Source: Candidatus Bathyarchaeota archaeon (GTDB lineage Archaea > Thermoproteota > Bathyarchaeia > Bathyarchaeales > Bathycorpusculaceae). From it: a DNA stretch of 64,000 nt. The stretch covers positions 288,001 to 352,000 of the forward strand of contig OY970176.1 in NCBI GenBank assembly GCA_963707955.1. Reading direction: 5' to 3'. A model generated the notes under the pieces. It worked only from the letters and a program-made list of their open reading frames with translations. It did no database searches and had not been told where the DNA came from. Positions 3,600-35,555 of the stretch are shown in pieces (the first letter of the stretch is position 1; every line of letters starts with the position of its first letter). The translations under genes were made by a program, and so were the position numbers.

Positions 3600-3850
3600 G
3601 TTTTCGGCGCCTCCGTTCTCGGCAGCTGCTCGAGCTCCGTCCTCGTCTGTCTGATCATCTCCTGGATTTCCTGCTCTAGCCCCTGGAGATGCTTGAGTTT
3701 TGTTTCCAGGGCCCTTCGCTGAGTCCTAAGCGTTCCAGCTCTGCCGAGGTAGACTTCAGACTTGTGGCCGCTGCCGTCGTAGGTCCAGAAGTACTTGTAC
3801 GTGTGGCCTTTAACCGTCTTGTCCAGGAAGCCGAAGGTAAACTGGGTCAC
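3596..3850 (-). CDS. Small DNA-binding protein with KGHTYKY...VYLG beta motif plus coiled coil (integrase accessory/excisionase candidate)
   Basis: Motif resembles the N-terminal domain of SSV-type integrases; coupled to the recombinase by ATGA overlap. Confidence 0.55.
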   Translation of the reverse strand: MTQFTFGFLDKTVKGHTYKYFWTYDGSGHKSEVYLGRAGTLRTQRRALETKLKHLQGLEQEIQEMIRQTRTELEQLPRTEAPKT

Positions 3851-6161: not shown

Positions 6162-6965
6162 ATGGTCAGTAAAGACTTTTCACTGAAGTTCGTAATCCCT
6201 TTCAACGCTGACAAGGTTGACTCACAGTTAGCCATCAGGGAGCGCCTTCTCAACATAGAAGGCGTCGCGATTGATACAAGCGTCAACGCGAACAAGTGGC
6301 AAATCCCGCCTGAGGACTTGGACTATTTCACGGCGACGTTGAAGGGGGCTCAGCTGCGCGTCGATCACGCTGAAAGCGCGCTTGCAGTCATCGGCATCGT
6401 GCCTGAAGCGAGGCGGGTTGGCAGCCAGGTTGTCTTTCGCGCAGAGATTGGCGACGCTGCATTAATAGAAAAAATCCTACGTGGCTACATCAGCAATGTG
6501 AGCGCACAAGTGGACTCTGATAACGTTGAATGCTCAAAGTGCTTGAAGCAAACGCGGAAAGAAGGCATGCTCATCCACCTCTGCCCGGGCGCTTGGGAAA
6601 TCGTCCATAAACCCAAAGTCAGAGAACTTAGTATCGTCGCCAGCCCGGCATATGAGAAGACGAAGTTCCTGCCAGTTGGCTTCGCGCAAGCTATGGATGC
6701 GTCGCAGTCGCAGAAGTTCAGTGCCGAAGTCGGCAATCCAATGCAGCCGTTGACGAAAGGGATTCTGGTTTTAAAGCTAAAACTGCTGACAAGGGAAGTG
6801 GAACGTCAAGACATAGCTGCAAGAATAGCTGCTATTGACTCTCAACTAGCTGAGTGGGATTTAGAGAGCACTGCTAAGCCACTGCATAAATATGAAGCTA
6901 AGAGACAGCAAAGACCTCAAACCTTCATGGACGAACTACACGCTGCAGTTAACACGCGACCGTAA
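6162..6965 (+). CDS. Prohead (capsid maturation) protease-like protein with C-terminal coiled coil
   Basis: IEGVAIDTSVNAN, LRVDH...VIG, NVSAQ, ELSIVASPAY: HK97/assemblin-fold protease motifs; GGAGGTGA RBS. Confidence 0.8.
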   Translation: MVSKDFSLKFVIPFNADKVDSQLAIRERLLNIEGVAIDTSVNANKWQIPPEDLDYFTATLKGAQLRVDHAESALAVIGIVPEARRVGSQVVFRAEIGDAALIEKILRGYISNVSAQVDSDNVECSKCLKQTRKEGMLIHLCPGAWEIVHKPKVRELSIVASPAYEKTKFLPVGFAQAMDASQSQKFSAEVGNPMQPLTKGILVLKLKLLTREVERQDIAARIAAIDSQLAEWDLESTAKPLHKYEAKRQQRPQTFMDELHAAVNTRP

Positions 6966-6992
6966 CTGACAGCATGCTTGGAGGTGAAAACT

Positions 6993-7118
6993 ATGTCAAA
7001 AAAGACTCATCGGTTTGATTGGGATGGTACGCCGAAAAAAGAGGAGCCGCTACAAGAATCCCTCGGTGGTCCCGGCGGCCCAGGCGTGTTCAACCGAAGC
7101 AAAAAGCGCAGGCAGTAG
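6993..7118 (+). CDS. Small hypothetical protein (41 aa)
   Basis: Not in ORF track; GGAGGTGA RBS, MSKKTHRFDWDG...KKRRQ. Confidence 0.55.
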   Translation: MSKKTHRFDWDGTPKKEEPLQESLGGPGGPGVFNRSKKRRQ

Positions 7119-7128
7119 GTGAAGCTGG

Positions 7129-7437
7129 ATGTCAGAACAAAAGGTGTTCAACCCCAAAGAGTTCGCCAAGGAGAGCCAGGCACTGAAGGAGGTCTACGAT
7201 CCTGACATGGGCCTAATCAGGTATCGCCCTCTGCTCTTCAATGATTTGGCTGCACTTGAGAAGGCCGGAACAAAGGCAGAGAGAAGTCAGCTGGCACTTT
7301 TCACGATGCTGAAAGCTGGCTGTCTGGACTTGACTCTTGAGCAGGTGGGACAGTTTGAATTGAGGAAGGCTGCATTATTGCTCAAGCGCATAGCCGGAGA
7401 CCTGGTGCCCGCGCTGAGAGAATTCGGGTTGGAATAG
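7129..7437 (+). CDS. Hypothetical protein, possibly tail-assembly-chaperone-like
   Basis: 102 aa, IRYRPL..DL pattern, position in a morphogenesis-like operon. Confidence 0.4.
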   Translation: MSEQKVFNPKEFAKESQALKEVYDPDMGLIRYRPLLFNDLAALEKAGTKAERSQLALFTMLKAGCLDLTLEQVGQFELRKAALLLKRIAGDLVPALREFGLE

Positions 7438-7446
7438 GCGAGAAAG

Positions 7447-8490
7447 ATGCTGTTATGTGAACCGGAAAGAAACCTGAGCGCTGAGCAGAGCCTCATTAAT
7501 GATACTAACTTGTACGGAGCTAACTCAACGTCGTTCGGGACGATCCATGACTATGGTAACATTACGGTTCCAGCTGGCGGAAGCTTAGTCGCCTTCAGTC
7601 TTGAAACCCTGCTTGCCCACATCAGCTTCATAAACGGGGCCGTCCTCGCCATCCAAGTTGGCAGTCTCAAATACGTCGCAGGCTACTATTACGACAACAA
7701 CGGCCCAGACGAGAAGCACCTCGGCGCGCTGATTTGGCTTTCAGCAGGAACCTACGATATCTCTGTCGTTGGTCTTGTTCCGGACATAACGGAAACCGTG
7801 GAAATATATAACATGAAGGTTGGCCTTGTCCAGTTCAACGATGTCCAGCCGTCAGCACTAGCATACTACACGGCAGCGACAAACTCGATACAGCTTACAG
7901 TTCCAAATCGGACGTTGCCAGTCGGAAGCTTGAACCAGGCAGTATTCGCCATTAACATCTGCACAAGCGGAACCCTAGGGTCAACATTCGTCTTGACTGT
8001 AGACGGCGTTGCTCACACTGATATGGATGAGTCAAGCTGGCTCGAATATCCAGGGATCCAGCAGGTTAATGGGTATGACATCTACAAGTTTTACATTCCA
8101 CTTTCAGTCGGAGTCCAGCACACGATCGGCATCGCACTTTCAGGCGGCGCCGTCGCTTACGCCTCCGTAATCGCGTGCCCATGGATATGCGCCCTCGCAG
8201 GAAGACGACACAACCCTCTCAAGCTGAGCTTCTCGCAGCTGAGCACTTTCTACGTTGACATTGGCAGTCTCTTCAATAATGGAGCAAAAAACTGCTACAT
8301 AGGCGCGCAAAAAGCCATTTCATACGGAGCAGCCGATTACGGTCCTACTGCATCGCAGACGAGTACTGGCGGGATGCTTTCCTTCAGCTACACCTTCACA
8401 GCCGTAAGCGTGTCAGCCTCTTCCTTCGTCGTAGACTCAAACAGTGTTCTCGGCAGCTGCATCGAAAACATCGCGGTGGACATTCAATAG
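7447..8490 (+). CDS. Beta-rich virion/tail-fibre-like structural protein
   Basis: 347 aa rich in G/S/T/Y/V/I, few charged residues; last gene of the operon. Confidence 0.55.
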   Translation: MLLCEPERNLSAEQSLINDTNLYGANSTSFGTIHDYGNITVPAGGSLVAFSLETLLAHISFINGAVLAIQVGSLKYVAGYYYDNNGPDEKHLGALIWLSAGTYDISVVGLVPDITETVEIYNMKVGLVQFNDVQPSALAYYTAATNSIQLTVPNRTLPVGSLNQAVFAINICTSGTLGSTFVLTVDGVAHTDMDESSWLEYPGIQQVNGYDIYKFYIPLSVGVQHTIGIALSGGAVAYASVIACPWICALAGRRHNPLKLSFSQLSTFYVDIGSLFNNGAKNCYIGAQKAISYGAADYGPTASQTSTGGMLSFSYTFTAVSVSASSFVVDSNSVLGSCIENIAVDIQ

Positions 8491-8499
8491 GAAGCATGA

Positions 8500-8600
8500 A
8501 CAGAGGCGACCTAACGTCTAATCAGAGGGGGTTCTCCCTCGAATCAGAGGCGCGCCCTCGAATGTGAACTCAATCAGAGGACGAGTCCAATCGGAGGGGC
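8500..8600. repeat. Right cluster of AATC(A/G)GAGG motifs
   Basis: Copies at ~8520, 8542, 8572, 8589; TAATCAGAGGGGG at 8519-8531 is identical to 1879-1891. Confidence 0.85.
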
Positions 8601-8897
8601 CAAATGGGAAAATATAGGAAAGTATAGACTTTTGGGGTTAACTTCTGGGACTTCTGGTTCAAATGAACCGAAAGTTGAGCTCCCTCCGGAGGAGCTGTGA
8701 ATATTCCGCGCGGCATAGCTTGGATCTCAGTCAGGTCCTTCTAAGACGTCGACGACGTCGATGAGGGGGCCGGGTGAGCCTGTCAACGTTGAAAAACAGA
8801 AAAAAAGAGGGGTTGCGGTGGAGATGAGTGTTGTTGACTCCACTTGGGGTTGCTTAAGCCTTTTGGTAGTGCAGTTTTGACTGTAAGTACTCCCTGT

Positions 8898-9600
8898 CTA
8901 CGCAAGGCTGACGAATCTCTTTGGTTTTCTGTAGAGGTGGATTCCGTTGAACTCGTCGTATTTTTCGAATCCTGCTTCTCCTAGCTTCTTGACTTCCTCT
9001 ACGGTTGTGGCTGCTGTCACGTCGTAGTCGCTGTCCTTGAACTCGATGAGCTGAGTGTATTTCATGGTGCTGTTGATGTTCTTGTGCCCTAGCAACTTCT
9101 TGACCAGGAGTATTTTGTTTGTGCGGAAATAGACCATTGTGGCTCCCCAATGCCTGAACGTGACTAGGCTGATCTTGAGGATCCTTGGATTGTTGAGTTT
9201 CGCAGCTATCCTCTCTCGCATGGTGAAGTAGCATCGAGCAAGCACCTGATACGTTGTCGGAAAGATCAACTCTGAAGTCTTCGGCAAAGCATTGAGCATC
9301 GAGCACAGATTATTGCTTACCTGTACCTGTCTCGGATAGTGTCCTTTGACAGGCCTGTTGATTGTTACGACGTTGCCGTTCAGGTCTATCCATCGTAGCC
9401 TTAAAGCTTCTGAGGGGTCAGCCATCGTTTCCTTTAAAGTTTGTAGGTAAGCCGTCATCCGTTTGCTGTTAGCCTCCAAGACCAGGGCATCAATTTCCTT
9501 CTCGTCAGGCATGAAGGGAAACGCTTCTTCTTGGCGGAATCTCGGGGAGTCCATGAGAGCTTCAACATCTTCGTCAAAGCGTCATAGGCGTAGGTCACCT
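8898..9600 (-). pseudogene. Truncated archaeal site-specific tyrosine integrase
   Basis: TFRHWGATM...LLGHKNINSTMKY; an upstream frame continues QVTYAYDALTKMLKLSWTP (frameshift at ~9547) and is cut at GCGCGCGC 9601-9608. Confidence 0.8.
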
Positions 9601-10169
9601 GCGCGCGCAATTGTTGGTGGTCACTCTAAAGGGATGATGATGAGAGCGCGCTAAGATTAGGTGATAGAATGAAAAAACCTTTAAGGTCGAAAGAAAGAAG
9701 ATTGAGATTATTGAATGGTAAGAATGTTAAAGCTGTTCTGTCTGATCGAACAAATGCTATCGGGACATTAAATCATGTTGGAAGAGGAATATGGAGTATT
9801 ACTGCAATAAAGAGTCTAAAACCTTACAAAAGGGAAAGTTAAGATGAGGTAGATTTGATGCACAGATTTCTTGTTCAAGGACTTTCAACTATTGCTTACT
9901 ACATTCGCTTCTCTTTTCCTAATGTTTCGTTTGCATTATTCCTTCTTGCGTATTCAATTATAAAGTTGACTTACATTAGCATAGACGGAACACGTTATCT
10001 AAGAACAGGTGTTTATTTCTTTCCTGATGTAATACCATTATCTGAAATGGAAGTGCTAGTTTTTTCTCGTGCTTCTTTCTCACGAAATTAGCGCGCGCTC
10101 GCGCTCCATCCAAAATACATGGTAGAAAAAGGGGAAGATGCAGGAAATATCGCCAGTTAGAATGAAAAT

Positions 10170-19852: not shown

Positions 19853-20120
19853 GAAACGCGCTGTGCCCTGAGACAAAAAGCCCAATTTCTAAATTGTTCT
19901 TGCCACAGAAACGTTGTTTCGTATACAAAAGCATCAACGCAGTTCGTTCCTTCAGACTGCTTCACCCGTGCGCGGTTCCTTCGTCCAGAAGCGGGCTCCG
20001 CACTCAAGATCACAATCATTTTGAGTTCATGGGGCCAGAGTCTTCATTGCCCGCCACGCAAAACTAAAAGTATCCCACATAAAAAGCTTATACGCATCGC
20101 ACAAGTTGCTGTGAGACCTG

Positions 20121-21104
20121 ATGCTAAGAAGGATTCGCGTCGTTCCGTTGGCTGCTGAGAGTCTCGGAGTGAGGTCTATGTGCACATACGTTGAGACGCC
20201 TGACACGCGAATTCTCTTGGATGCTGGCGTTTCACTGTGTCCAAACCGTTTCGGCCTCCCTCCTCATCCCAAAGAGTTCAAGGCAATAGTTGAGAGTCGC
20301 AGAAAAATCGCGCGGGCCGCAGAGAAGGTTCAGGTTGTCACCATAAGCCACTACCATTACGACCATCACACGCCTTCCTTCGAGGATTGGCTGGTCAACT
20401 GGACAGATGCAGGTGAGACTGCTGGGCAGATCTACGAGAACAAGACCGTTCTAGCGAAGAATCCTCGAGAACAAATCAATTACAGCCAACGGGAGAGAGC
20501 TTGGATGTTCAGCAAGACAGGCGGCAAGTATGCAGAGAAGATCGAAAATGCAGATGGCAAAACCTTCATGTTTGGCGCCACGACAGTCAAGTTCTCCGAA
20601 CCGGTTTTCCACGGACCAGAAAACTCGCAGCTAGGATGGGTGCTGATGACAACGATTACGTCTCAGGATGAGAAGTTCCTTTTTGCTCCAGACGTCCAAG
20701 GGCCAATGTCCGCCTACACGCTCCAAACTATCATCAATGAAAACCCTCAGCTGCTGATGATCGGAGGGCCACCCATCTACCTTTCTCCGTTGAAGGTTGG
20801 CGAAAATGAACTTCAAACTGGGCTCAAAAACTTGGGGGATATCGCCAGAAAAATCCCAAACGTGATCCTTGACCATCACGTTCTGCGAGACGAAAACTGG
20901 CAAGAAAACACGATTAACATACTCTACGATAGTTACAAGTCAGGGTCCACGCTCCTAACGGCAGCCGAATTCTTGGGCAAACAGAGTGTTTTGCTGGAAG
21001 CTTCAAGGAAGCGACTCTTCAACGAAAACCCGCCGTCCAAAGAGTTTGAAACCTGGATGAAAGCCAACGATGAGACCAAGAGGCACGTGAAGCCGCCCAT
21101 CTGA
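20121..21104 (+). CDS. UPF0282 metallo-beta-lactamase-fold protein
   Basis: ESLGVRSM, SHYHYDH, DVQGP, DHHVLRD. Confidence 0.9.
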   Translation: MLRRIRVVPLAAESLGVRSMCTYVETPDTRILLDAGVSLCPNRFGLPPHPKEFKAIVESRRKIARAAEKVQVVTISHYHYDHHTPSFEDWLVNWTDAGETAGQIYENKTVLAKNPREQINYSQRERAWMFSKTGGKYAEKIENADGKTFMFGATTVKFSEPVFHGPENSQLGWVLMTTITSQDEKFLFAPDVQGPMSAYTLQTIINENPQLLMIGGPPIYLSPLKVGENELQTGLKNLGDIARKIPNVILDHHVLRDENWQENTINILYDSYKSGSTLLTAAEFLGKQSVLLEASRKRLFNENPPSKEFETWMKANDETKRHVKPPI

Positions 21105-22196: not shown

Positions 22197-22273
22197 TGGG
22201 GCCGGGGCCGGGATTTGAACCCGGGCGCTAGGCTCCACAGGCCTATAGGCTACCAAGCTACCTCACCCCGGCC
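22197..22273 (-). tRNA. trnH: tRNA-His (GUG) with encoded G-1 and CCA
   Basis: Acceptor GCCGGGG/CCCCGGC, anticodon arm TAGGC-CTGTGGA-GCCTA, T-arm CCGGG-TTCAAAT-CCCGG. Confidence 0.95.
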
Positions 22274-26334: not shown

Positions 26335-26970
26335 GCCCCGAGACGAAGTGACCGGGGTGATGCTTTCGTATACACGGCCTTGCGCGTCGCGGAAAGCTGG
26401 GGGCTTTGGTGACATGTTAAAAACCCCTGCAATACTGTGGTCACTGAGGCCACCAGCAAGTAATCTAGATATGTTAAGCAAGCCAGAATTTCGCACTCTT
26501 GGCCTACAGTCGACAGTACAAACATGTGCACTCATGGGGGAGACGCCAGAATTTGGCTTCATTAGTTCTCAAATCCGCCCCGCAGAAGTTGGTGAAAACC
26601 CCTGAATCTGCCTCGGTGTAGGGATGCTGGCGTAGACAATAGCATCGCCAAGAGTCAGTTCGGAGCATCGGCTAACACACTGCCGGGTGCCTGGTCAAAA
26701 GAGCTGGTTCTGCCCTAGAAGGCGGTAGCCGATGGGCCAGGTTTGTGCGCAGGACACATGTGAGAACGATTTGGGTTCACAAGGCACTATCTCACAGTAC
26801 ACATTAGGCAAACAGCACGTGCAGTATTTGGAGTTGTATGAGTATTGGTCAGGTCTCCTAACGGTTTAGCTCTAAGTCATTGGAAAGGGTCGAAGTAGTT
26901 ACGAAGGTCTAGGCTGCTGGGTTCGCATGGAGATTTTCGTCGGTTCTTCTATGAGGCCCCGACCATCCAC
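26335..26970 (+). ncRNA. Putative large structured non-coding RNA (unknown family)
   Basis: No credible ORF; many complementary segments (26362-70/26900-08, 26375-81/26886-92, 26431-37/26822-28, 26495-503/26647-55, 26623-28/26641-46, 26666-74/26726-34). G-U pairs favour the + strand. Confidence 0.6.
26932..26960 (+). repeat. attL direct repeat of element 2
   Basis: GATTTTCgtCGGTTCTTCTATGAGGCCCC; 27/29 identical to 32871-32899, 20-bp exact core. Confidence 0.92.
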
Positions 26971-27155
26971 GTTATGAACCTATCCCTCAGATTTAAGGTT
27001 CTTTCGCCAAAACAAGCCTATTTCATAAAGTCGGTTTTGAGTGGTTTTTGACCATTCACTTCGAGAAAAAGCATGGTATGTTTCGAAGAAAGTCCATGAA
27101 AGCGAAGGTTTTTCGAAGTTTGATGGTCTTTTTCCATGAAAACTACTTCGAAACG

Positions 27156-27908
27156 CTAGGCTACCGGGTACTTCTCATATCTACGTCTCAAGTATGGCTG
27201 AAGACTGCGCGGATCCGCTTTAGTCTTATCTGTGACTGCCATAATGTCATGGTCCATCATGTCATAGTCATAGTTGTAGCCGAAGGCTCTCAAAAAGTGC
27301 TGAGTGATGTTTGGCAGTAAGGCTTTCACGATTTGCCATTCTCTCTTAACCCCGGCGATTTGAACGCTGTATCTATGCCTAACCGTTCCATCATGCAGCG
27401 TGTAGTCATGGCCCTTAATCAGATACCTTCTTTTCGTTAAGCTAAATGCGAACAGTCTAGGCTGATTCTTTGACCTTTTTCCTTCCTTGTCATATTCAGT
27501 TATGTCCTCTAGGTATTCCAGAATCAGCTTTGTAAAGCGCGCGCGCTCACCTTTCAGTGGCAGCCTCGCGGTTCGAAACAGAATCTTGTTAGCTTTCCTC
27601 TTGCCAACCAGAACGCCGAAGACGTTGATGTATGTCTGAGAGTCTTCTTTGTCGGCTGTGTGTTTCTCAAAGTTATCCGGCGTCAGTGGCAGGACTTCGC
27701 TGGCTCTGAAGTCACCTAGATAGAGTAGGGCAACGAGAGCGCGGTCCCTTCGCTGATAGAAGGCCATGTTAGACTTGTAGTCGATGCCAGGACTTTTCAT
27801 CAAGTTTTCATAGAGCTCTTTCGGTGTTGGATACTTCTCTATCTGCAGCAACGTGAGCCTAGAGGGTTTCTTATCTGAATCTTTTGAGGCCAAAGTCCTT
27901 CGCTTCAC
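27156..27908 (-). CDS. Divergent tyrosine recombinase/integrase
   Basis: RDRALVALLYLGDFRASEVL, TQHFLRAFG, C-terminal Tyr (LQPY); adjacent to att. Confidence 0.85.
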   Translation of the reverse strand: MKRRTLASKDSDKKPSRLTLLQIEKYPTPKELYENLMKSPGIDYKSNMAFYQRRDRALVALLYLGDFRASEVLPLTPDNFEKHTADKEDSQTYINVFGVLVGKRKANKILFRTARLPLKGERARFTKLILEYLEDITEYDKEGKRSKNQPRLFAFSLTKRRYLIKGHDYTLHDGTVRHRYSVQIAGVKREWQIVKALLPNITQHFLRAFGYNYDYDMMDHDIMAVTDKTKADPRSLQPYLRRRYEKYPVA

Positions 27909-27946
27909 TTCTTATTAGGTTTATAATAAGACCTTTTATGGATGCT

Positions 27947-28768
27947 TCAATTCTGAGAATCGGTTTCATGGTTTGCATTACCACTTCGCTCTGCGTTACG
28001 TGTTACGCTCGCATACTCGCTGCAAATCTTGATAATACTTCTTTTTATTTGCTCACGACTCAACTTAGTGATAGTTTCTATTTCAGCGATAGACTTCCCC
28101 TCTGCACGTAACTGTGCAACCTGGCCGTCTCTATCTAGGTTGCCTAATGGTAACTTCTTTTTTAACGTGAAGATTGCAACATCCTTAGAGTTAAACCTAA
28201 TAGAAGTTCTAGGTATGTTACATAAAGTCCATGATTTTCCAGATACACGATCATTGATGATTGCGGTCTGTCTGCTAACCTTGTGAATGTATAAGTCAAG
28301 GATGTCCGTGTCTAGGATTTTGCGGTCTATGAAAACGTGGCTCGGGCTGATGGCAATAAAGCCACAGTCATAATGCCTGCACATTTGGATAACGTCAAAG
28401 ATTTCCACGTTCTTTTGACTCATAAAGCGCATCCTTCCCAAGTGGATCCCCGCTTCGTCGAGGATGTAGAGTTTCTTGCCGGGCCTCTGCAGCCATAGTT
28501 TAAGGCTCTCGAGATCTGTGATCTGTGCTTCTATCATGTAGCTTTCAGTCTTGATGTTCGTGGCTATGTGAGTATGATATTTTTGAACGTAGCATATTTC
28601 AGCTAGAAGCAACGAGAAATCTGTCTTGCCCTTATCCTTCCGGCCTTTGATGACAATTACGAACCCATCTTGTTCTAGGATAGGCTCAATGTCAGGGATG
28701 ATAGGAACAAGGACTTCAGCCTTACTTGTTGGCGGCCTGGCTAATTCTGTCCCGGACATTCTTAGCAC
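27947..28768 (-). CDS. Zot-like/FtsK-HerA-type P-loop ATPase with C-terminal HTH
   Basis: IKGRKDKGKT, IATNI, YILDEAG, CRHY; C-terminal LRAEGKSIAEIETITKLSREQIKR. Confidence 0.7.
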   Translation of the reverse strand: MLRMSGTELARPPTSKAEVLVPIIPDIEPILEQDGFVIVIKGRKDKGKTDFSLLLAEICYVQKYHTHIATNIKTESYMIEAQITDLESLKLWLQRPGKKLYILDEAGIHLGRMRFMSQKNVEIFDVIQMCRHYDCGFIAISPSHVFIDRKILDTDILDLYIHKVSRQTAIINDRVSGKSWTLCNIPRTSIRFNSKDVAIFTLKKKLPLGNLDRDGQVAQLRAEGKSIAEIETITKLSREQIKRSIIKICSEYASVTRNAERSGNANHETDSQN

Positions 28769-29066
28769 TCACGGTTTTTGATTGATCGCCCACGATCATG
28801 GACAGCCTGGTCAATTCGCCAAACCTTTCCATGCCTTCGACAATTCCGTTATAGTGAATGAGCTCTTTAATAAATTCCATAGTGTCCATACCGCTTCTCA
28901 AATCTTCTAAATGGTCCAGAACCCATAAAGCAATGGCAGTGTCAGGGTCAAGCCTTGCGATTTCGACATACTCAGGGAACTTTTTGCTAATGGCCATACC
29001 TAGCGTTAAATATTGCTGAAATCTGATGTAGGCGTCTTCCTCGTTTCTTCTATTTCGTTCAGTCAT
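28722..29066 (-). CDS. Hypothetical protein
   Basis: 114-aa ORF overlapping the ATPase start. Confidence 0.6.
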   Translation of the reverse strand: MTERNRRNEEDAYIRFQQYLTLGMAISKKFPEYVEIARLDPDTAIALWVLDHLEDLRSGMDTMEFIKELIHYNGIVEGMERFGELTRLSMIVGDQSKTVSAKNVRDRISQAANK

Positions 29067-29356
29067 ATCTTATCACGTGCTGCAGGGCATATTCTTCGCG
29101 TAGACTCTCGGCGAGCGCCTTCATTGCTTCCACATCGTCTAGCGCAATGATGGTTATCAGGTTTGATATCATTCTGAGGTCTTGCGGTGTGAAGGTTGGT
29201 TTCTTTTGTTTGGGTTTCATAGTTTTCACCATGACTTTGACAGGAACATATCAAAAGTGTATGGTGAAAGCTCGAGTGTGCGGGTTTGGTTAGCGCACTG
29301 CCTCGAGCCTTCAGCTTCGCGTCGACGCGCAATAGTGCCATAGCCAACGAACACCT

Positions 29357-29575
29357 TTAAGATTTTCTCTGATTCATAGCGTTAAAGCACTTCGCATGAT
29401 AAATCGTTCTGAAAGCATCATACTCGCCATAGGCCACATGATGCTTACTGACTGTGAGGTCACCATGCCGTAAGGCTTCACTACACAGGCAACATTCAAC
29501 ATGCTTGAACCCATCAGGATCCACAAACTTGTACACGTGAAGGGGCTTCATTGGCCTAGCCTCTGAATTTCCCAT
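29357..29575 (-). CDS. Small zinc-finger protein
   Basis: CCLC...YHAKC; architecture similar to 1923-2093. Confidence 0.65.
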   Translation of the reverse strand: MGNSEARPMKPLHVYKFVDPDGFKHVECCLCSEALRHGDLTVSKHHVAYGEYDAFRTIYHAKCFNAMNQRKS

Positions 29576-29639
29576 GTAACAGAGTTACAGAGTTTATCGA
29601 GTTCCGAGAGTGTGTGACCATCCTTTTTACCATGCTTTT

Positions 29640-31037
29640 TCATGGTAGCGCACCCTCGGAACTTAGTAAACTCTGTAACTTCGTTACAAGTTCATAACCA
29701 TACTTTTTGGCAACCTTCCTAAGCTTGATGAGATCAAACTCGTAGCCTCTGACAACTACATCCTTCCCTTCGGAATCCTTCTCTCGCATAGCCTTAGACT
29801 TTCCGCTTATAACTTCTCTTAGGCGATAACCAACTTTATTCTTCGTGACCTTGAAGAAGTCACCAGTATCCATTTCGTTTGGCTTGTTCTCATTCAGTTT
29901 TCCGTCTAATTCAAGGCCTAATTCTTCCCATATCTTCTTTAAAGGCAGAGAATAAATTTGAGCCTTAGAATCAATTTGAGCCTCGTTGCATAGGTCCACA
30001 ACTACCTTAACGATTTTGCCCTCTAAAGTGTCCTGGCGGCCGCTTAACCTGGCTTTCCTCTGGTCTTCGACAAACCGGTACAAATCGCTGTAGATTGGAA
30101 GGTCACTCGTTATCTGCAGGATAGGCTTCCACAGTTCCTTGAGTCGTCCTTTCACGGTTAACTCAACATTTGGCAAGTCCTCTTGTCTACTGGTCATTCG
30201 CCACTTCAGAAGCATGTTTCTAAGGGTCCGTATGCGTTCTTTGTCAGTTCTTGACAAGTCACACCATTCTTTTTGCGGTGAGCCTTCAACCATAGACAAA
30301 AACATGAATCTCTCGTTAAACCCCTTCACTTGCGGTATCTGTTCACTAGCGCAAGCCTTGAAACAGAATGTTCGGTAATACTTGATTATGCGAGTGAAAT
30401 TCGTCATCAGAGTCCTCGGCACTACGGCGCCTTCTTTGTATCCGGCCTTGTAAATTTTGATTTTATCCGTGTCCTTTTGGATTCCTTGAACTTCATCCTC
30501 GAGTATGCAGCCTTGACCGTCAGAATCTTCCAAGTAGCCGTAGAGGTCAGCCGAAGGAATAGTGACGCCGTACATAGGCCGGTAGCATAGGCTCTTCAAG
30601 ACTTGCAGAACAGTTGATTTGCCACTTTCGTTATCGCCATAACAGAACAGGTACGGAACGGTCTGCAGTTTCTCTTGTTGATAGGTTAACAGTGTGCAGG
30701 CTGTCAAGACGTCTTTCCAAATAGGTTCAACGTCTATCCACGTTTCAAACTCGTTTCTAACCTGTCGGGCTAATTCCTCTCTTCCCGGCGTTTCTTGTTT
30801 GCAGTAGCCGTAAGGCTCGTATGGAATGTTCTGCCTCTCTTTTGGACTGATCGTTTCCTCTGCAAACTCTATCGTTTCGACCAGGCTGAAGCTGCCACCA
30901 TTCAACCGTAGAAAATAGGGTTTATCACTGTCATAGACAGCTTCAAAGCAACCATTCGAAAGAATGCCGGAGTCTTTGAGTTTCTTCCGTTGCTTCTTGT
31001 CTTTTTCTGTTTCTTCAAGTTCTTCAGTGAAGGCCAT
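29640..31037 (-). CDS. P-loop helicase-like replication protein (DUF3631-like)
   Basis: YGDNESGKSTVL, ILEDE, KAGYKEGAVVPR; follows the primase. Confidence 0.8.
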   Translation of the reverse strand: MAFTEELEETEKDKKQRKKLKDSGILSNGCFEAVYDSDKPYFLRLNGGSFSLVETIEFAEETISPKERQNIPYEPYGYCKQETPGREELARQVRNEFETWIDVEPIWKDVLTACTLLTYQQEKLQTVPYLFCYGDNESGKSTVLQVLKSLCYRPMYGVTIPSADLYGYLEDSDGQGCILEDEVQGIQKDTDKIKIYKAGYKEGAVVPRTLMTNFTRIIKYYRTFCFKACASEQIPQVKGFNERFMFLSMVEGSPQKEWCDLSRTDKERIRTLRNMLLKWRMTSRQEDLPNVELTVKGRLKELWKPILQITSDLPIYSDLYRFVEDQRKARLSGRQDTLEGKIVKVVVDLCNEAQIDSKAQIYSLPLKKIWEELGLELDGKLNENKPNEMDTGDFFKVTKNKVGYRLREVISGKSKAMREKDSEGKDVVVRGYEFDLIKLRKVAKKYGYELVTKLQSLLSSEGALP

Positions 31038-32019
31038 GTTTCTTTATCTCCTGCACGACTTCGCGGATCCCTGATATTCCTTTGAGGCATCTTTTGAGGC
31101 GGTTCTGATAGTGATAGTCAACTGAAGCAAGTCTAATGGCTCTTTGATCGTCACCGGTTCTCAGAACGACCTCTTCAATTATGCGTCTTGCCGATTCAAT
31201 GGAAACGCCTTTCCTCAGGCAGAAACCGAGAAAGTACATTTCAAGGTCGTTACGATAACCATGTATCCAATACTTGCACAGAAACGCTACGGATTTTTCC
31301 TCTTCCCTATTGCTTAATGGCTTGAAAGTCTTAGGCAGATTAAACATGGCTTGAACGTTGCTTTTCTGTTTTAAACTCAATATTCTCGCTATATCTGCTT
31401 CGCTGAAGCTGATGCCTTGAAAATCTGATAAGTACGTGTTCGGTAGAGGCGTCCAGGCTTCATGATCAAGTATTCTGGACCACTTCTGTTCTTTTTGGTG
31501 AAGGCCTAGAGGCAGCTTAACGAAGTTGCCGTAAGGCCGGTCTTCTGTCAACTCTGTTTGCTTCGGGAAAACCTCAACTTCCTTAGGATTCAAGTTTGAG
31601 AGCTCAAGTATGCGGTAGCCTAGCCACTGCGCCACTTTCGCGTCGACTGCAGGCGCGAAGAATATCCACACGTGAAAACTCGGATCAGAATATCGGCTTG
31701 CTTCCAACATGACGGCAGAAGGCCATATTCTAGGCTTCGGGGTTCCTTCCTCTTCCTTCACTTCGAAAATAACCGGCAGCAACTTGAGGACTGTTGTTTT
31801 CGGTTCTTTCAGTTTTTCCGGGTCAAAGTCAAAGCATAGGTACTTGACCGTGTTATCTGTGCCTAATTGATAGCTGCCAACAGTCTTACGACCCTGCAAG
31901 TGGTCGTTAAGCTGTTGAAAGGTCAACGGTTCCGCTATTCGACTGTAGCTTCCATCCTTATTCTGTTGACAATAACAGTCTTCCCGGTTCACGAAGAGGT
32001 CATGCAAATCAACGGCCAT
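31024..32019 (-). CDS. Archaeo-eukaryotic primase (Prim-Pol) with primase C-terminal helical domain
   Basis: CFDFD, FHVWIFF, EVFPKQ, GNFVKLPLG, GYRND. Confidence 0.88.
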   Translation of the reverse strand: MAVDLHDLFVNREDCYCQQNKDGSYSRIAEPLTFQQLNDHLQGRKTVGSYQLGTDNTVKYLCFDFDPEKLKEPKTTVLKLLPVIFEVKEEEGTPKPRIWPSAVMLEASRYSDPSFHVWIFFAPAVDAKVAQWLGYRILELSNLNPKEVEVFPKQTELTEDRPYGNFVKLPLGLHQKEQKWSRILDHEAWTPLPNTYLSDFQGISFSEADIARILSLKQKSNVQAMFNLPKTFKPLSNREEEKSVAFLCKYWIHGYRNDLEMYFLGFCLRKGVSIESARRIIEEVVLRTGDDQRAIRLASVDYHYQNRLKRCLKGISGIREVVQEIKKHGLH

Positions 32020-32030
32020 GCAGAGAACAC

Positions 32031-32168
32031 CTAAGCGCGCGCTAGCTCCTCTTGAATCAATGAATCTACAACGCCGGAAGCGGTTTTCTGTTCCAGGTCC
32101 CGGCGCTTTCTCTTGACCGCTAAAATCTTGTCCAGGTCAATCGCAACAATGGCCGTTTTGCTTGACAT
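32031..32168 (-). CDS. Small RHH-like protein (45 aa)
   Basis: Not in track: MSSKTAIVAIDLDKILAVKRKRRDLEQKTASGVVDSLIQEELARA. Confidence 0.6.
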   Translation of the reverse strand: MSSKTAIVAIDLDKILAVKRKRRDLEQKTASGVVDSLIQEELARA

Positions 32169-32169
32169 G

Positions 32170-32307
32170 TTAGACCTCTTTCAAGAATTGCTGAATTGCT
32201 GTTCGAATGGCCTCTGAAAGTGACTTGAACTTTCCTTCTTTGATTAGCTGTTCAATCCTTGTGCGTTGGTCCGGCTCTAGCCTAGTCGTTATGCGTAGGT
32301 TCTTCAT
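32170..32307 (-). CDS. CopG-like RHH protein (45 aa)
   Basis: Not in track: MKNLRITTRLEPDQRTRIEQLIKEGKFKSLSEAIRTAIQQFLKEV. Confidence 0.85.
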   Translation of the reverse strand: MKNLRITTRLEPDQRTRIEQLIKEGKFKSLSEAIRTAIQQFLKEV

Positions 32308-32321
32308 TTTTAACATCAACT

Positions 32322-32349
32322 TGTCCGAAGGCATTAAATGTCCGAAGGC
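32322..32349. promoter_or_regulatory. Operator-like direct repeat around an AT-rich TATA-like spacer
   Basis: TGTCCGAAGGC at 32322-32332 and 32339-32349 flanking ATTAAA, between divergent RHH genes. Confidence 0.6.
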
Positions 32350-32387
32350 TCAAAAAGATTTCATACACACGAAACTAAGGCGATAAC

Positions 32388-32744
32388 TTGAGCTGGATGA
32401 GTAATAGGACCGGAAGGCCAAAAAAAGAGCATGGACATAAAAGACGCAACCTCAGCCTCAACGAATTTACGAATTATGCGCTAGACATCATAAAACCATA
32501 CAGCAACATGTCAAAGTTTGTGGAAGAAGAACTGAGGCCAGGCTTAATTAGTGCCATCCACAAGGTCAAGGCCGATATTATGAAGGACCTCTCGAAAGAT
32601 AAGAGCCTAGTCGGGCGAATGTTATACAGAATCTTTGAGGCTGTCTTTGACGTCTTTCCTCTCGAACCATGCACTTCGAACTTTTCTAGCCTAAATCTAA
32701 CGCCTTTTGTCGAAATAGGCATTTCTTCAACATACACGCTTTAA
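32388..32744 (+). CDS. Divergent RHH-like regulator
   Basis: GRPKK...RRNLSLN...NMSKFVEEEL. Confidence 0.65.
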   Translation: MSWMSNRTGRPKKEHGHKRRNLSLNEFTNYALDIIKPYSNMSKFVEEELRPGLISAIHKVKADIMKDLSKDKSLVGRMLYRIFEAVFDVFPLEPCTSNFSSLNLTPFVEIGISSTYTL

Positions 32745-32870
32745 AAAAGCGAAGACGCTGCGTTCGAGGCGCAAATAACCAAAGAAGCCTATTCCTTACG
32801 TTAAGCATGTTGGAACTCTAAGCAAAAGCCTCAGTTTAAGGCGGTTTGAAGAAAAGCGGCTAAGTCCATC

Positions 32871-32899
32871 GATTTTCAACGGTTCTTCTATGAGGCCCC
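32871..32899 (+). repeat. attR direct repeat of element 2
   Basis: GATTTTCaaCGGTTCTTCTATGAGGCCCC. Confidence 0.92.
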
Positions 32900-33246
32900 A
32901 GCGAAGTCCATGCCTTGCCCTCAAGAGTGAAGGAAACTGGCCAAAATCTCTTTGCTTTCGCTCAAGGGAGCTTGCTTTGGGGTTTTCTGTTTCGTGTCCG
33001 TTGTGAAAAACTGTCAGCTGTTGCTGAAGGGTAGTTTTACGGCTGAACTTCGTACTCTAATCTGGCCTATTTTGCAGGGTTTATGTTGGGAATTCGCCGT
33101 TTTCATGAAAATGGGCCTGTCGGTTTTCGAAACGCTTTCAAAACGTAGCACTGTTCGAAACGCGCATTCTGCATGGTTAGAAGCTCATGTTATCAGTTTC
33201 TTCATATTGCTGATTTTGAAATACCACTTTAATTGCTCATCGCACT

Positions 33247-35555
33247 GTGTTTTTTGTCAGAGAAAAGATAGCAAAGGTGCCAGTCTTGCCGCCAAGCTGT
33301 TTTGGAGATGACGTTGAAACCCTTGAGAGGAACGTCAACGGAAGGAGAGTCAGTGTGAAGTGGGACTGGGGGAGCTTTGGGAGCACTGAAGGCTTTCCTG
33401 TTGATGACAACCTGATAAACTGGGCCATTGGACAAGACCAGGCCCTGAAAGAATGTTTCTTATGCCTAGATGAGTGGGTGCACAAGCTCAAGTGGCTAGA
33501 GAAGAACGAGTGGTACACGAACTGGAGTAGTCCTGACAAGTCTAAAGCCTCTGTCAAGACGCTGATCAGTCCTGGACCCTATCTCATGCTGCTGGGAGAT
33601 CCTGGAACAGGGAAATCGCTGATCGGTAGGGCCCTGTCGGAAAAGTTGACGCAAGTGTACAGCGAAAACGGCATACGATTGGCCGACGCGCTTTGTTGGA
33701 AAAACTCGGTGTTGCCCAGTCAACCCAAGATTTCGATCCACAAGGCTGGTGAAGGAAAGAAGATTGTTCAAAAAGAACAGCTCAAGGACCTTAAGAGGAA
33801 ATTCCTCACGAGGGTGGGGTTCAAGGCTCTGCAGATTTTGATGGTGGCTATGGGCTTGTTCTTGATTTGCCTCGGGTTTTACTTCATCTACCAGGGCTGG
33901 GTTACTTGGCAGTCGAACCCGCCCTATTCGGGCGAGACTCTTCAGCAATTCTACGGCAACAGTTTCCTATCTTATCTCATCGCACAGTTCGTCGGCCTAG
34001 TTCCTCTGACTTTCATCCCAGGTGGAAGCCTTGTGTTCTTCGGAGTTTTCTTGTGGTGGCTTTCCAAGATGGGTGGAATGGCAAACCTCAAGGGTATCGG
34101 AGGCGCCCAACAGTCTGACGCTCCGAAGCTGATCGTCGACAACAGTTCCGGCTATGCGCCTTTTATTGACGCGACGGGACATAGGACTGCCCAGCTTTTC
34201 GGTTCAATAGCTTGGGATCCGTATCAAACTGGCGGCTTGGGCACTCCTGAGCATCAGAGGGTTAGTGCTGGAGACGTGCACGTGGCGTCTTTGGGCATCC
34301 TTTACATAGACGAGATAAAGAACCTTGACGCTGAGGAAACCGTAACGCTGCTGACAGTGCTGGAAGACGGACAGCTGCCGATAACTTTGCGAGGCAGATT
34401 CAACGGCGGAGACACGGCGGCAATGGCAGTTTCAACGGAACCCGTTCCTTCGATAACGTTTCTTGTCGGCGCTGGGAACTTTGACAGCATAGGACAGATT
34501 CATCCTGCTCTCATGGACAGAATATACGGATACGGCAAAGTCGTGCGCATGAACAACGACATGCCGAACACCATCGAAAACAGGCGCAAGTACGTTCAGT
34601 TTATAACACAGGAGGTCAAACGCTTCAACCTCATCCCGTTCACCAGAGACGCATGCGAAGAAATAGTTGAGGAAGGCAGACGAAGAAGCGACAAAAAGTA
34701 TGCGTTAACAACAAAGTTCAGACCGCTGATCTCGATCATTAAGACCGCTTCGACGCTGGCGATGAATGAGAATGCCGCGATCGTGGAAAGAAGACACGTG
34801 ATTGAAGCCGTTGAACAGCATTGTAAGACCATCCAGAGGCAGATACTCGAGCACAGCATTCAAGAGAGGGGAAACTCCTGGAGATCGAACCAAAGGGAGC
34901 CAAGCTGGGACAAATACACGGCCTAGCCGTTGTCCAAGACTCCTACAGCGGTGAAATGACGGGCAGCGTGTTGAACGTGAAGGCTCAAATGGTCAAGAGA
35001 AGCGCGCTTGCAAGAGACTACTCCTTCAAAGGATACTACAAAGTGACGGGGGCCGCCAAAGGTCAGAGCTTCATTTCAGACAGCATAGCCAAAGTTAGAA
35101 GCGTGATTCTGCAGAAGTACGGCGTGGACATCGCGCAGGACTATCTCACCCACATCGACTTTGCGCAGTCTTACGGCATAGATGGACCATCAGCGGGCGT
35201 TACGATGGCGATTCTGCTGTGCTCACTTATCGAGGGAAAACCGATAAGACAGGACGTCGCAGTCACAGGAGAAATCAACCTTGGCGTTGGAGAATCCATT
35301 CAGGTAACGGCCGTCGGAGGCGTCTACGAGAAGATCAAGTCCGCAGAAGCATGGGGGTTCAAGAAAGTTGTCATTCCGCAAAAAAACTATGAGAATTCCA
35401 TAGACATCAGGGACTACAAGATTGAAGTCGCTCCTGCGGCAACCTTGGACGATTATTTGAAGGCGTGTCTCGTTGAGACGCCTGTGCTCAAGGTTCCAGT
35501 CCAGGCTTGGAGGCGCAACGTGCGGGCTAACGCTACGAGAAGCGCCAGAATGTAG
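33247..35555 (+). CDS. lonB: Archaeal membrane-bound Lon protease (LonB); frameshift at ~34873
   Basis: GDPGTGKS, TM insert, GILYIDEI, IDGPSAG and catalytic K; adding one A at GGAAAC restores GKLLEIEPKGAKLGQIHGLAVV. Confidence 0.9.

Follow-up and report, generated by a model that had tools for sequence, protein, structure and literature searches.

Archaeal integrated plasmids and proviruses whose tyrosine integrases target tRNA genes have been reviewed (PMC8371274; this and the other papers named here are cited from excerpts of their text). The same review cites archaeal att sites in intergenic regions or protein genes, namely those of prophage PsiM100 and of thaumarchaeal elements, so that, going by these excerpts, a target outside tRNA genes is not new in kind. 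'Suicidal' integrases of the SSV type are covered there and in PMC7253208, and archaeal dif sites have been found through an architecture of 11-bp inverted arms and a spacer (PMC2958812). For the Bathyarchaeia, the excerpted text of PMC11705971 limits the search for proviruses to tRNA, integrase and repeats, and is silent on the site treated below. Here we analyse a 64,000-nt stretch of the chromosome of a Candidatus Bathyarchaeota archaeon (the window; contig OY970176.1, positions 288,001 to 352,000). It contains a 5.9-kb segment, Element 2, that is very likely a plasmid-like element integrated site-specifically at a non-tRNA attB, having entered by recombination between attP and attB.

Element 2 resembles the tRNA-targeting archaeal elements in being a small replicon with its own tyrosine recombinase, short terminal direct repeats and an intact int gene beside one att site, and in that relatives of its integrase use tRNA genes; it differs in that its own target is not a tRNA gene and that its integrase is only 250 aa long and escapes Pfam. 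With PsiM100 and the thaumarchaeal elements, as the excerpts present them, it shares a non-coding target outside tRNA genes. Unlike theirs, its target is an ultra-conserved, family-wide module with a conserved inverted repeat, which several elements share. SSV-type integrases are likewise archaeal tyrosine recombinases on small elements, but in Element 2 the int gene is unsplit and intact and the att core ends at 26960, 195 nt past the int stop codon, so that this is no split integrase of the SSV type. As far as a limited literature search goes, what is new here is the element, its short integrase family and its att site, a family-wide ultra-conserved non-coding module used by several elements.

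The element, a unit of the excisable type, is bounded by direct repeats of 29 nt, identical at 27 positions and spaced 5,939 bp apart, as the original prediction had stated (Table 1). The 2.35-Mb genome, a single contig, contains two exact copies of a 20-mer within them (CGGTTCTTCTATGAGGCCCC) and none of a reversed control. When the 671 nt to the left of the element were searched against 41 related genomes, full-length matches were found in three genomes of the same genus, G001 (90% identity), G007 (80%) and G010 (75%). Each has a single core copy (GATTTTCGTCGG) that leads directly into the right flank of the window (AGCGAAGTCCATG...) and then into the lonB gene. These natural empty sites identify the 5.9-kb segment as an insertion whose ends are exact to the base. 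The two mismatches between the repeats sort by origin, GT in attL being the empty-site (host) type and AA in attR the element type, and we therefore infer that the crossover took place inside the right-hand 20 bp, with strand exchange within the identity CGGTTCTTCTATGAGGCCCC at 26941-26960. The G+C content is 41-49% in the insert and 50-56% in the flanks, and the occupied form is bridged by contigs of three runs of one study (attL in X1-X3, attR in X1 and X3).

Several points weigh against this account of Element 2. No excision joint or circle junction is present in contigs of four runs of one study, contigs being assemblies that drop rare forms; attP of Element 2 is a computed sequence, derived from attL and attR; the integrase protein itself has no Pfam match, PF00589 included; and the match of the integrase profile to the PDB is weak (XerD, E = 0.066; XerA, E = 0.13).

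In the mechanism that we propose, a replicon encoding an archaeo-eukaryotic primase (AEP) primase-polymerase, two P-loop NTPases and a 250-aa divergent tyrosine recombinase would have recombined its attP site-specifically with attB in a Bathyarchaeia chromosome. Integration would keep the invariant left part of the module and one full core at attL and duplicate the core at attR. The extreme conservation of the module would make it a dependable landing site for several different mobile elements.

The integrase alone also finds no PHROG or PDB sequence match. Metagenomes yield 105 homologues, about 220 aa in length, of which nine match PF00589 and several were annotated as integrases at source. 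Residues R68, K103, H204, R207 and Y239 are invariant among 32 aligned homologues, and the usual second His/Trp is without assignment. The AlphaFold2 model (predicted local distance difference test score 86.1, predicted template-modelling score 0.82) retrieves XerH or Cre in all eight Foldseek hits at E <= 0.001, followed by Flp, XerA and phage integrases. The original prediction of a divergent integrase is thus borne out: the protein has invariant catalytic residues and a predicted tyrosine-recombinase fold despite escaping Pfam. Among species genomes, a scan with the single protein returned no homologue, and a scan with the profile returned one C-terminal fragment.

The larger open reading frames (ORFs) of Element 2 all lie on the minus strand. 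For the 465-aa protein, a role as replicative NTPase is suggested by its position beside the primase. Lambda-type attP carries arm-type sites. The arm between the core and int of Element 2 is similar in that TTCGAA and CCATG motifs cluster in it and recur, conserved, in a related element; it differs in that the host flanks of attB have motifs of these types as well and that the N-terminal part of the integrase is short. This arm has TCCACG at +6 to +11 from the core and a cluster of TTCGAA(G/A) and CCATG/CATGG at 27059-27150, and the 500-nt bin containing it has the highest counts of TTCGAA and of CTTCGA/TCGAAG in the window.

Table 1 Features of Element 2 and its integration site (window coordinates)
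Feature	Coordinates	Strand	Basis
Host left part of conserved module	26884..26931	+	GGTTCGCATGGA preceded by two CGAAG repeats; alignments A2 and A5 show conserved blocks
Left arm of inverted repeat	26925-26931	+	Within GGTTCGCATGGA
attL core copy, 29 nt	26932..26960	+	First 9 nt host-type (GT at 26939-40)
20-bp block identical in attL and attR	26941..26960	+	Mismatches sort host versus element
int-side element arm	26961..27155	.	Homologous to G009 remnant arm (local alignment z = 16.9)
Integrase, divergent tyrosine recombinase, 250 aa	27156..27908	-	Homologues, catalytic residues, predicted fold
P-loop protein with C-terminal helix-turn-helix (HTH), 273 aa	27947..28768	-	phrog_1979, 1.2e-11; DnaA-like phrog_5484, 9.7e-6; weak HTH_7
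Small ORFs of 114, 94 and 72 aa	28722..29575	-	Without family matches except weak phrog_19515 (72-aa ORF)
Putative replicative NTPase, 465 aa	29640..31037	-	Walker-A-like GDNESGKS; only faint PHROG matches at the P-loop
AEP primase-polymerase, 331 aa	31024..32019	-	PF22548 AEP-TOTE, 3.8e-26; phrog_5362 DNA primase, 6.2e-23
Basic ORF, 118 aa	32388..32744	+	Without family matches
Element arm left of attR	32745..32870	.	Ends ...GCTAAGTCCATC; G109 attP-like copy has a similar GCTAA...ATGGACA flank
attR core copy	32871..32899	+	Element-type AA at 32878-79
Host right flank AGCGAAGTCCATGC	32900..32913	+	Identical in empty sites L003 and L004; TCCAT conserved in A5
Right arm of inverted repeat	32907-32913	+	Within AGCGAAGTCCATGC

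The original prediction that the core is not a tRNA also holds. ARAGORN detects no tRNA or tmRNA at the core; the one tRNA it reports for the window is tRNA-His (22197-22272), and 11 related loci have none. Rfam gives no match at the core at gathering or E-value thresholds in the window, in truncated stretches or in eight related loci. The RNase P RNA and the signal recognition particle (SRP) RNA are located elsewhere in the genome.

The attB core comprises 37 nearly invariant nucleotides (consensus TGGAGATTTTCG-NN-GGTTTTTATATGAGGCC) and is embedded in a non-coding module of about 100 nt. The module consists of an A-rich stretch, TCGAAG, seven variable nucleotides, CGAAG, about 14 nt and GCTTCG-CATGGAGATTTTCG, followed by two variable nucleotides, GGTTTTTATATGAGGCC, 8-11 nt and TCCATGC. 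It can be described as repeated CGAAG/CTTCG half-sites together with an inverted repeat, CATGGA...TCCATG, around a T-rich core. In the species-genome collection, 27 contigs contain the exact pattern TGGAGWTTTTCGNNGGTNTNTNTATGAGGCC, one copy in each, and all of these contigs are titled Bathyarchaeia or Bathyarchaeota. BLAST with a 113-nt query detects the module in 271 of the 332 host-family genomes (151 of the 169 high-quality ones) and in 56 of 70 genera. About 250 of the 271 module-bearing genomes have one match and 19 have two. It is the nucleotide sequence that is conserved: an 11-codon ORF in the core (MEIFVGFYMRP) was rejected as a coding sequence, with third positions as invariant as the others, a C terminus that is not conserved and an in-frame TAG in L012.

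The module usually has lonB downstream on the same strand (34 of 38 loci), at a distance of 334-551 nt in 32 of the 34, the exceptions in distance being two copies of the G009 locus (1,401 nt). A GNAT acetyltransferase gene lies on the side of the module opposite lonB. Counting against a general tie to lonB, just 7 of about 25 copies from further genera have the gene at a distance of 1.5 kb or less, and the link is not universal. L146 has the core turned round with respect to lonB and GNAT alike. Because of this inversion, and because lonB is often distant, we regard the module as a stand-alone unit and not simply as the lonB promoter. A promoter reading, in which a TATA-like run in the core (TTTTTATAT) would drive a rightward transcript or lonB and duplication of the core would keep expression at attR, appears improbable. 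It draws on the TATA-like run itself, which is kept in both att copies, on the spacing of about 12 nt between the upstream CGAAG repeats and on the position of the module mostly near lonB. However, no purine-rich TFB-recognition element stands beside the run, the run is broken to TTCTTCT in G000 and G010, lonB has its own conserved promoter-like block directly upstream, the sequence downstream of the core is poorly conserved, and the core in L146 points away from lonB.

Element 2 is not alone at this site. In G009, a genome of the same genus (L009/L120), the stretch from the core to lonB (core +31 to +1400) contains an Element-2-like remnant of about 1 kb. Its int gene is gone, but its first 260 nt are homologous to the int-proximal arm of Element 2 (z = 16.9), including the clustered TTCGAA and CCATG motifs, and are followed by a degenerate attR. 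On contig 29 of G072 (6498-9668; L179, L182 and L186), two core copies stand on the same strand 3.1 kb apart. The intervening sequence has only ORFs of 143 aa or less, the repeat reaches further left than in Element 2, and the whole has the appearance of a small or decayed insert at the module. Extra module copies with element-type flanks are present in G109 (L184), G343 (L192), G334 (L193) and G150 (L196). The G109 copy is attP-like for an Element-2-like element, both of its flanks being of element type, whereas the G343 and G334 copies are attL-like junctions with the arm motif AATCCATGTATC and arms like those of Element 2. Of the 19 two-match genomes, 15 were inspected, at the junctions only. 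No integrase of the Element 2 family lies within 1.5 kb of the other junctions (16 loci). The module is an integration hot spot common to several mobile elements.

A complete tailed virus also has part of the core: an IMG/VR contig of 51,251 bp with terminal repeats (L142) contains 25 nt of it (TTTTCGAGGGTTTTTATATGAGGCC) at 3679-3703, in an intergenic position between the structural module and a DNA methyltransferase gene. The motif on its right flank (TATGGAGTGA) recurs in L110 and L146. The virus shows no match to PF00589 or to the integrase profile A1. Among its 10 ORFs near the core, only the methyltransferase and a tail-completion/Neck1 protein were recognised, and two ORFs proved unrelated to A1 by hhalign. 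Such a virus might suggest that the core is a dif-like site of a host recombinase, borrowed by elements that include integrase-less ones, as by integrative mobile elements exploiting Xer (IMEX). The likeness to dif/IMEX as set out in the excerpts of PMC2958812 lies in a mostly single-copy, ultra-conserved intergenic site, in its working in either orientation (L146) and in unrelated elements at the core, one of them with no recognisable integrase. Yet no arrangement of 11-bp inverted arms with a 4-10-bp spacer (at most 3 mismatches) lies over the core, either in the computed attB or in 25 natural sites, and a dif-like dyad of the 11-6-11 type was rejected on this ground. Moreover, the integrase of Element 2 itself adjoins the core, and the missing viral integrase is weak evidence because the integrase of Element 2 escapes PF00589 too. 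We consider a dif-like site very unlikely.

Some genomes contain two near-identical module copies of host type. In G309 these are on contig 26 (7888-7942 and 39569-39623), in inverted orientation at a distance of 31.7 kb; each of the G102 copies has lonB behind it; and those of G248 are at contig ends. They may be duplications, strain mixtures or inversions between att copies.

The original prediction held that the integrase targets the terminal hairpin of a putative non-coding RNA (ncRNA) and preserves its structure. The complementary words on which it was built are all present: GCATGGA at 26925 with TCCATGC at 32907 and TTCG at 26936 with CGAA at 32902 for the empty site, and GTCGG at 26939 with CCGAC at 26959 and TGGA at 26928 with TCCA at 26966 for the occupied left junction. 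Folding of the natural empty sites L003 and L004, from the genus of the window, predicts the hairpin as the structure of minimum energy (-22.1 and -21.6 kcal/mol; z = -2.9 and -2.7, about -2.8 overall), with 3-4 of 200 shuffles as good. Across 25 natural sites, 80.4% of cells of the proposed stems can pair, compared with 31-42% when the partner is slid; across 54 sequences from more genera the value is 77.4% (29-52% with slid partners over both sets). The inverted repeat around the core is thus conserved, and empty-site genomes have it.

An RNA stem is a different matter. Covariation in the stem is at chance, with 150-272 of 500 shuffles reaching the observed value for the 25 sequences and 78-328 of 500 for the 54, and RNAalifold does not recover the stem (-4.3 kcal/mol). 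At stem positions 28/63 and 29/62, 33 and 36 of the 54 sequences, respectively, cannot pair, and the left arm is still invariant. In only 12 of 24 genomes do the host arms pair better than 95% of shuffled flanks. Within the core, a helix rich in G-U pairs does not vary and is hence uninformative on covariation. What these comparisons show of the conserved 'hairpin' is an inverted repeat kept by sequence conservation; a base-paired RNA stem is possible.

The claim that the element supplies a replacement pairing strand fares similarly. At attL, the outer pairing TGGA/TCCA has a duplex energy of -5.4 kcal/mol, which 62% of shuffled flanks equal; the replacement outer pairing is likewise at chance in the G009 remnant (64%) and in the virus flank (61%). 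By contrast, the whole 66-nt attL fold reaches -19.3 kcal/mol against a mean of -12.1 for a null in which only the 25 nt of the element are shuffled, with 1.5% as good, and is about as stable as the computed empty site (-17.7 kcal/mol, 3.2% as good). Arms of the Element 2 type also keep TCCAYG about 10 nt after the core, as TCCACG in G000 and G109b and as TCCATG in G343b and G334b, and in the attP-like copy of G109 the two arms are inverted to each other, as in attB. The idea that the element keeps the structure is thus not borne out by the outer stem, although the attL fold as a whole, which beats 98.5% of the null, and the TCCAYG arm speak in its favour. The arm motif could restore a host function; equally, it could be a binding site of the integrase itself, common to attP and attB.

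We tentatively read the module as a DNA element recognised by a protein, either a regulatory array or one that binds a recombinase, and put this at a little under an even chance. The attL fold just described tells against it, as do a second helix, CGAAGY/RCUUCG, that is weakly above chance (9-26 of 500 shuffles reach it), and an excess of G-U over A-C cells (41 to 10), such that wobbles compatible with the plus strand exceed those compatible with the minus strand. The 41:10 ratio fits a plus-strand RNA, although composition and shared ancestry may also account for it. A small plus-strand RNA or an RNA end is a serious possibility, if one that we would not bet on, and what is left goes to a module that is neither DNA element nor RNA.

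The specific form put forward in the original prediction, a 3'-terminal hairpin of a plus-strand ncRNA, targeted like the 3' ends of tRNAs and given a replacement 3' strand by the element, seems unlikely to us. It can call on the minimum-energy fold, the pairable arms, the G-U excess, the attL fold and the recurrent TCCAYG. T-runs can end archaeal transcripts, and those in the core could do so here. The chance-level covariation and replacement stems, the failure of RNAalifold and the invariance of the left arm with or without a pairing partner speak against it, and Rfam has no match. In addition, a 286-nt segment upstream, the would-be body of the RNA, folds weakly (consensus -6.2 kcal/mol) and is inverted in two genomes with the core unmoved. 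An origin of the host spacer between core and lonB from an old arm of an Element-2-like element was also considered and is unsupported (only an 11-nt identity, z = 2.1).

We preferred above to see the module as a protein-recognised DNA element; a further idea is that it is a dedicated landing pad maintained throughout one family of the Bathyarchaeia, either a small plus-strand RNA gene or a host recombination site, on which unrelated elements converge, the integrase-less-looking tailed virus among them. We hold this to be quite doubtful. If it were true and the host supplied the recombinase, the system would be an archaeal counterpart of dif-hijacking elements; if it were true and the module were RNA, a new RNA class would serve as a non-tRNA att target whose distal strand is rebuilt by the elements.

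The original prediction also proposed comparing att cores among integrase homologues. We examined 90 integrase-homologue loci (586 kb) for the core, allowing at most 2 mismatches in 17, and found it in none. A tRNA gene is nearby in only 2 of 24 long homologue loci, and in both the repeats overlap the tRNA. The L028 integrase (62% identity) targets a tRNA-Ala gene, with a 40-nt repeat and a 7.6-kb unit, and the L090 integrase (37% identity) the 3' end of a tRNA-Lys gene, with a 45-nt repeat and a 5.8-kb unit. For the L065 integrase (44% identity), the repeats are 32 nt long and spaced 3.2 kb, and the site is not a tRNA; there, a motif (TTATATGAGGCACCCAG) resembles the core of Element 2 in the opposite orientation relative to int. 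The family thus switches targets, with Element 2 and its close kin settled on the module. Unrelated targets, which the original prediction had named as refuting it, were found among the relatives, and this tells against the prediction in part: they show that targets have diversified within the family, not that Element 2 lacks specificity.

In L065 (7655-7760), the left repeat copy forms the 5' strand of a perfect 16-bp hairpin (GACACTAACAATTATA ... TATAATTGTTAGTGTC) whose 3' strand lies inside the element. The region resembles a tandem array of related elements.

Few mobile elements are known for the uncultivated Bathyarchaeia, and with Element 2 they gain a small integrative replicon together with a family of short tyrosine recombinases that is poorly recognised. 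Its non-tRNA att site can be searched for directly, which offers a simple route to integrated elements and viruses of the host family in metagenomes. The module itself is an unexplained, very strongly conserved non-coding element near lonB, and its binder or its transcription would explain the preference of mobile elements for it.

The 286-nt segment mentioned above (window 26355-26650, about 286 nt) is flanked by 18-bp inverted repeats, GTTGATGCTTTTGTATAC and GTATACAAAAGCATCAAC, and, in 22 aligned genomes (alignments A3 and A4), separates GNAT from the att module. As a structured RNA it was rejected on its weak consensus fold. L108 and L146 have its interior in the opposite orientation to the flanking genes (blastn, 69.6% over 158 nt, reverse), and the reversed L108 aligns with L146 at 74.9% over 303 nt. 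The segment may be invertible DNA or may have been inverted by recombination between the repeats. In L011/L122 an insertion of about 465 nt interrupts the segment and brings it to 751 nt, and the interval from GNAT to the att core contains a minus-strand ORF of 155 aa.

The 18-nt repeat motif has one further, solitary exact copy at 19920-19937 of the window, about 200 nt upstream of the ORF at 20121-21104, and a similar motif (ATGCTTTTGTATCC) stands upstream of genes in an unrelated Bathyarchaeia contig (L065; 7423, 9077 and 11543). Judged by these occurrences, the motif may be a common cis-regulatory motif of these archaea.

Finally, lonB in the window (33247-35555) is split into ORFs of 559 aa and 199 aa by a 1-nt deletion near 34874 relative to G001. 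The gene is a single ORF of about 660-820 aa in eight related genomes, and the split is either a real frameshift or a homopolymer assembly error.

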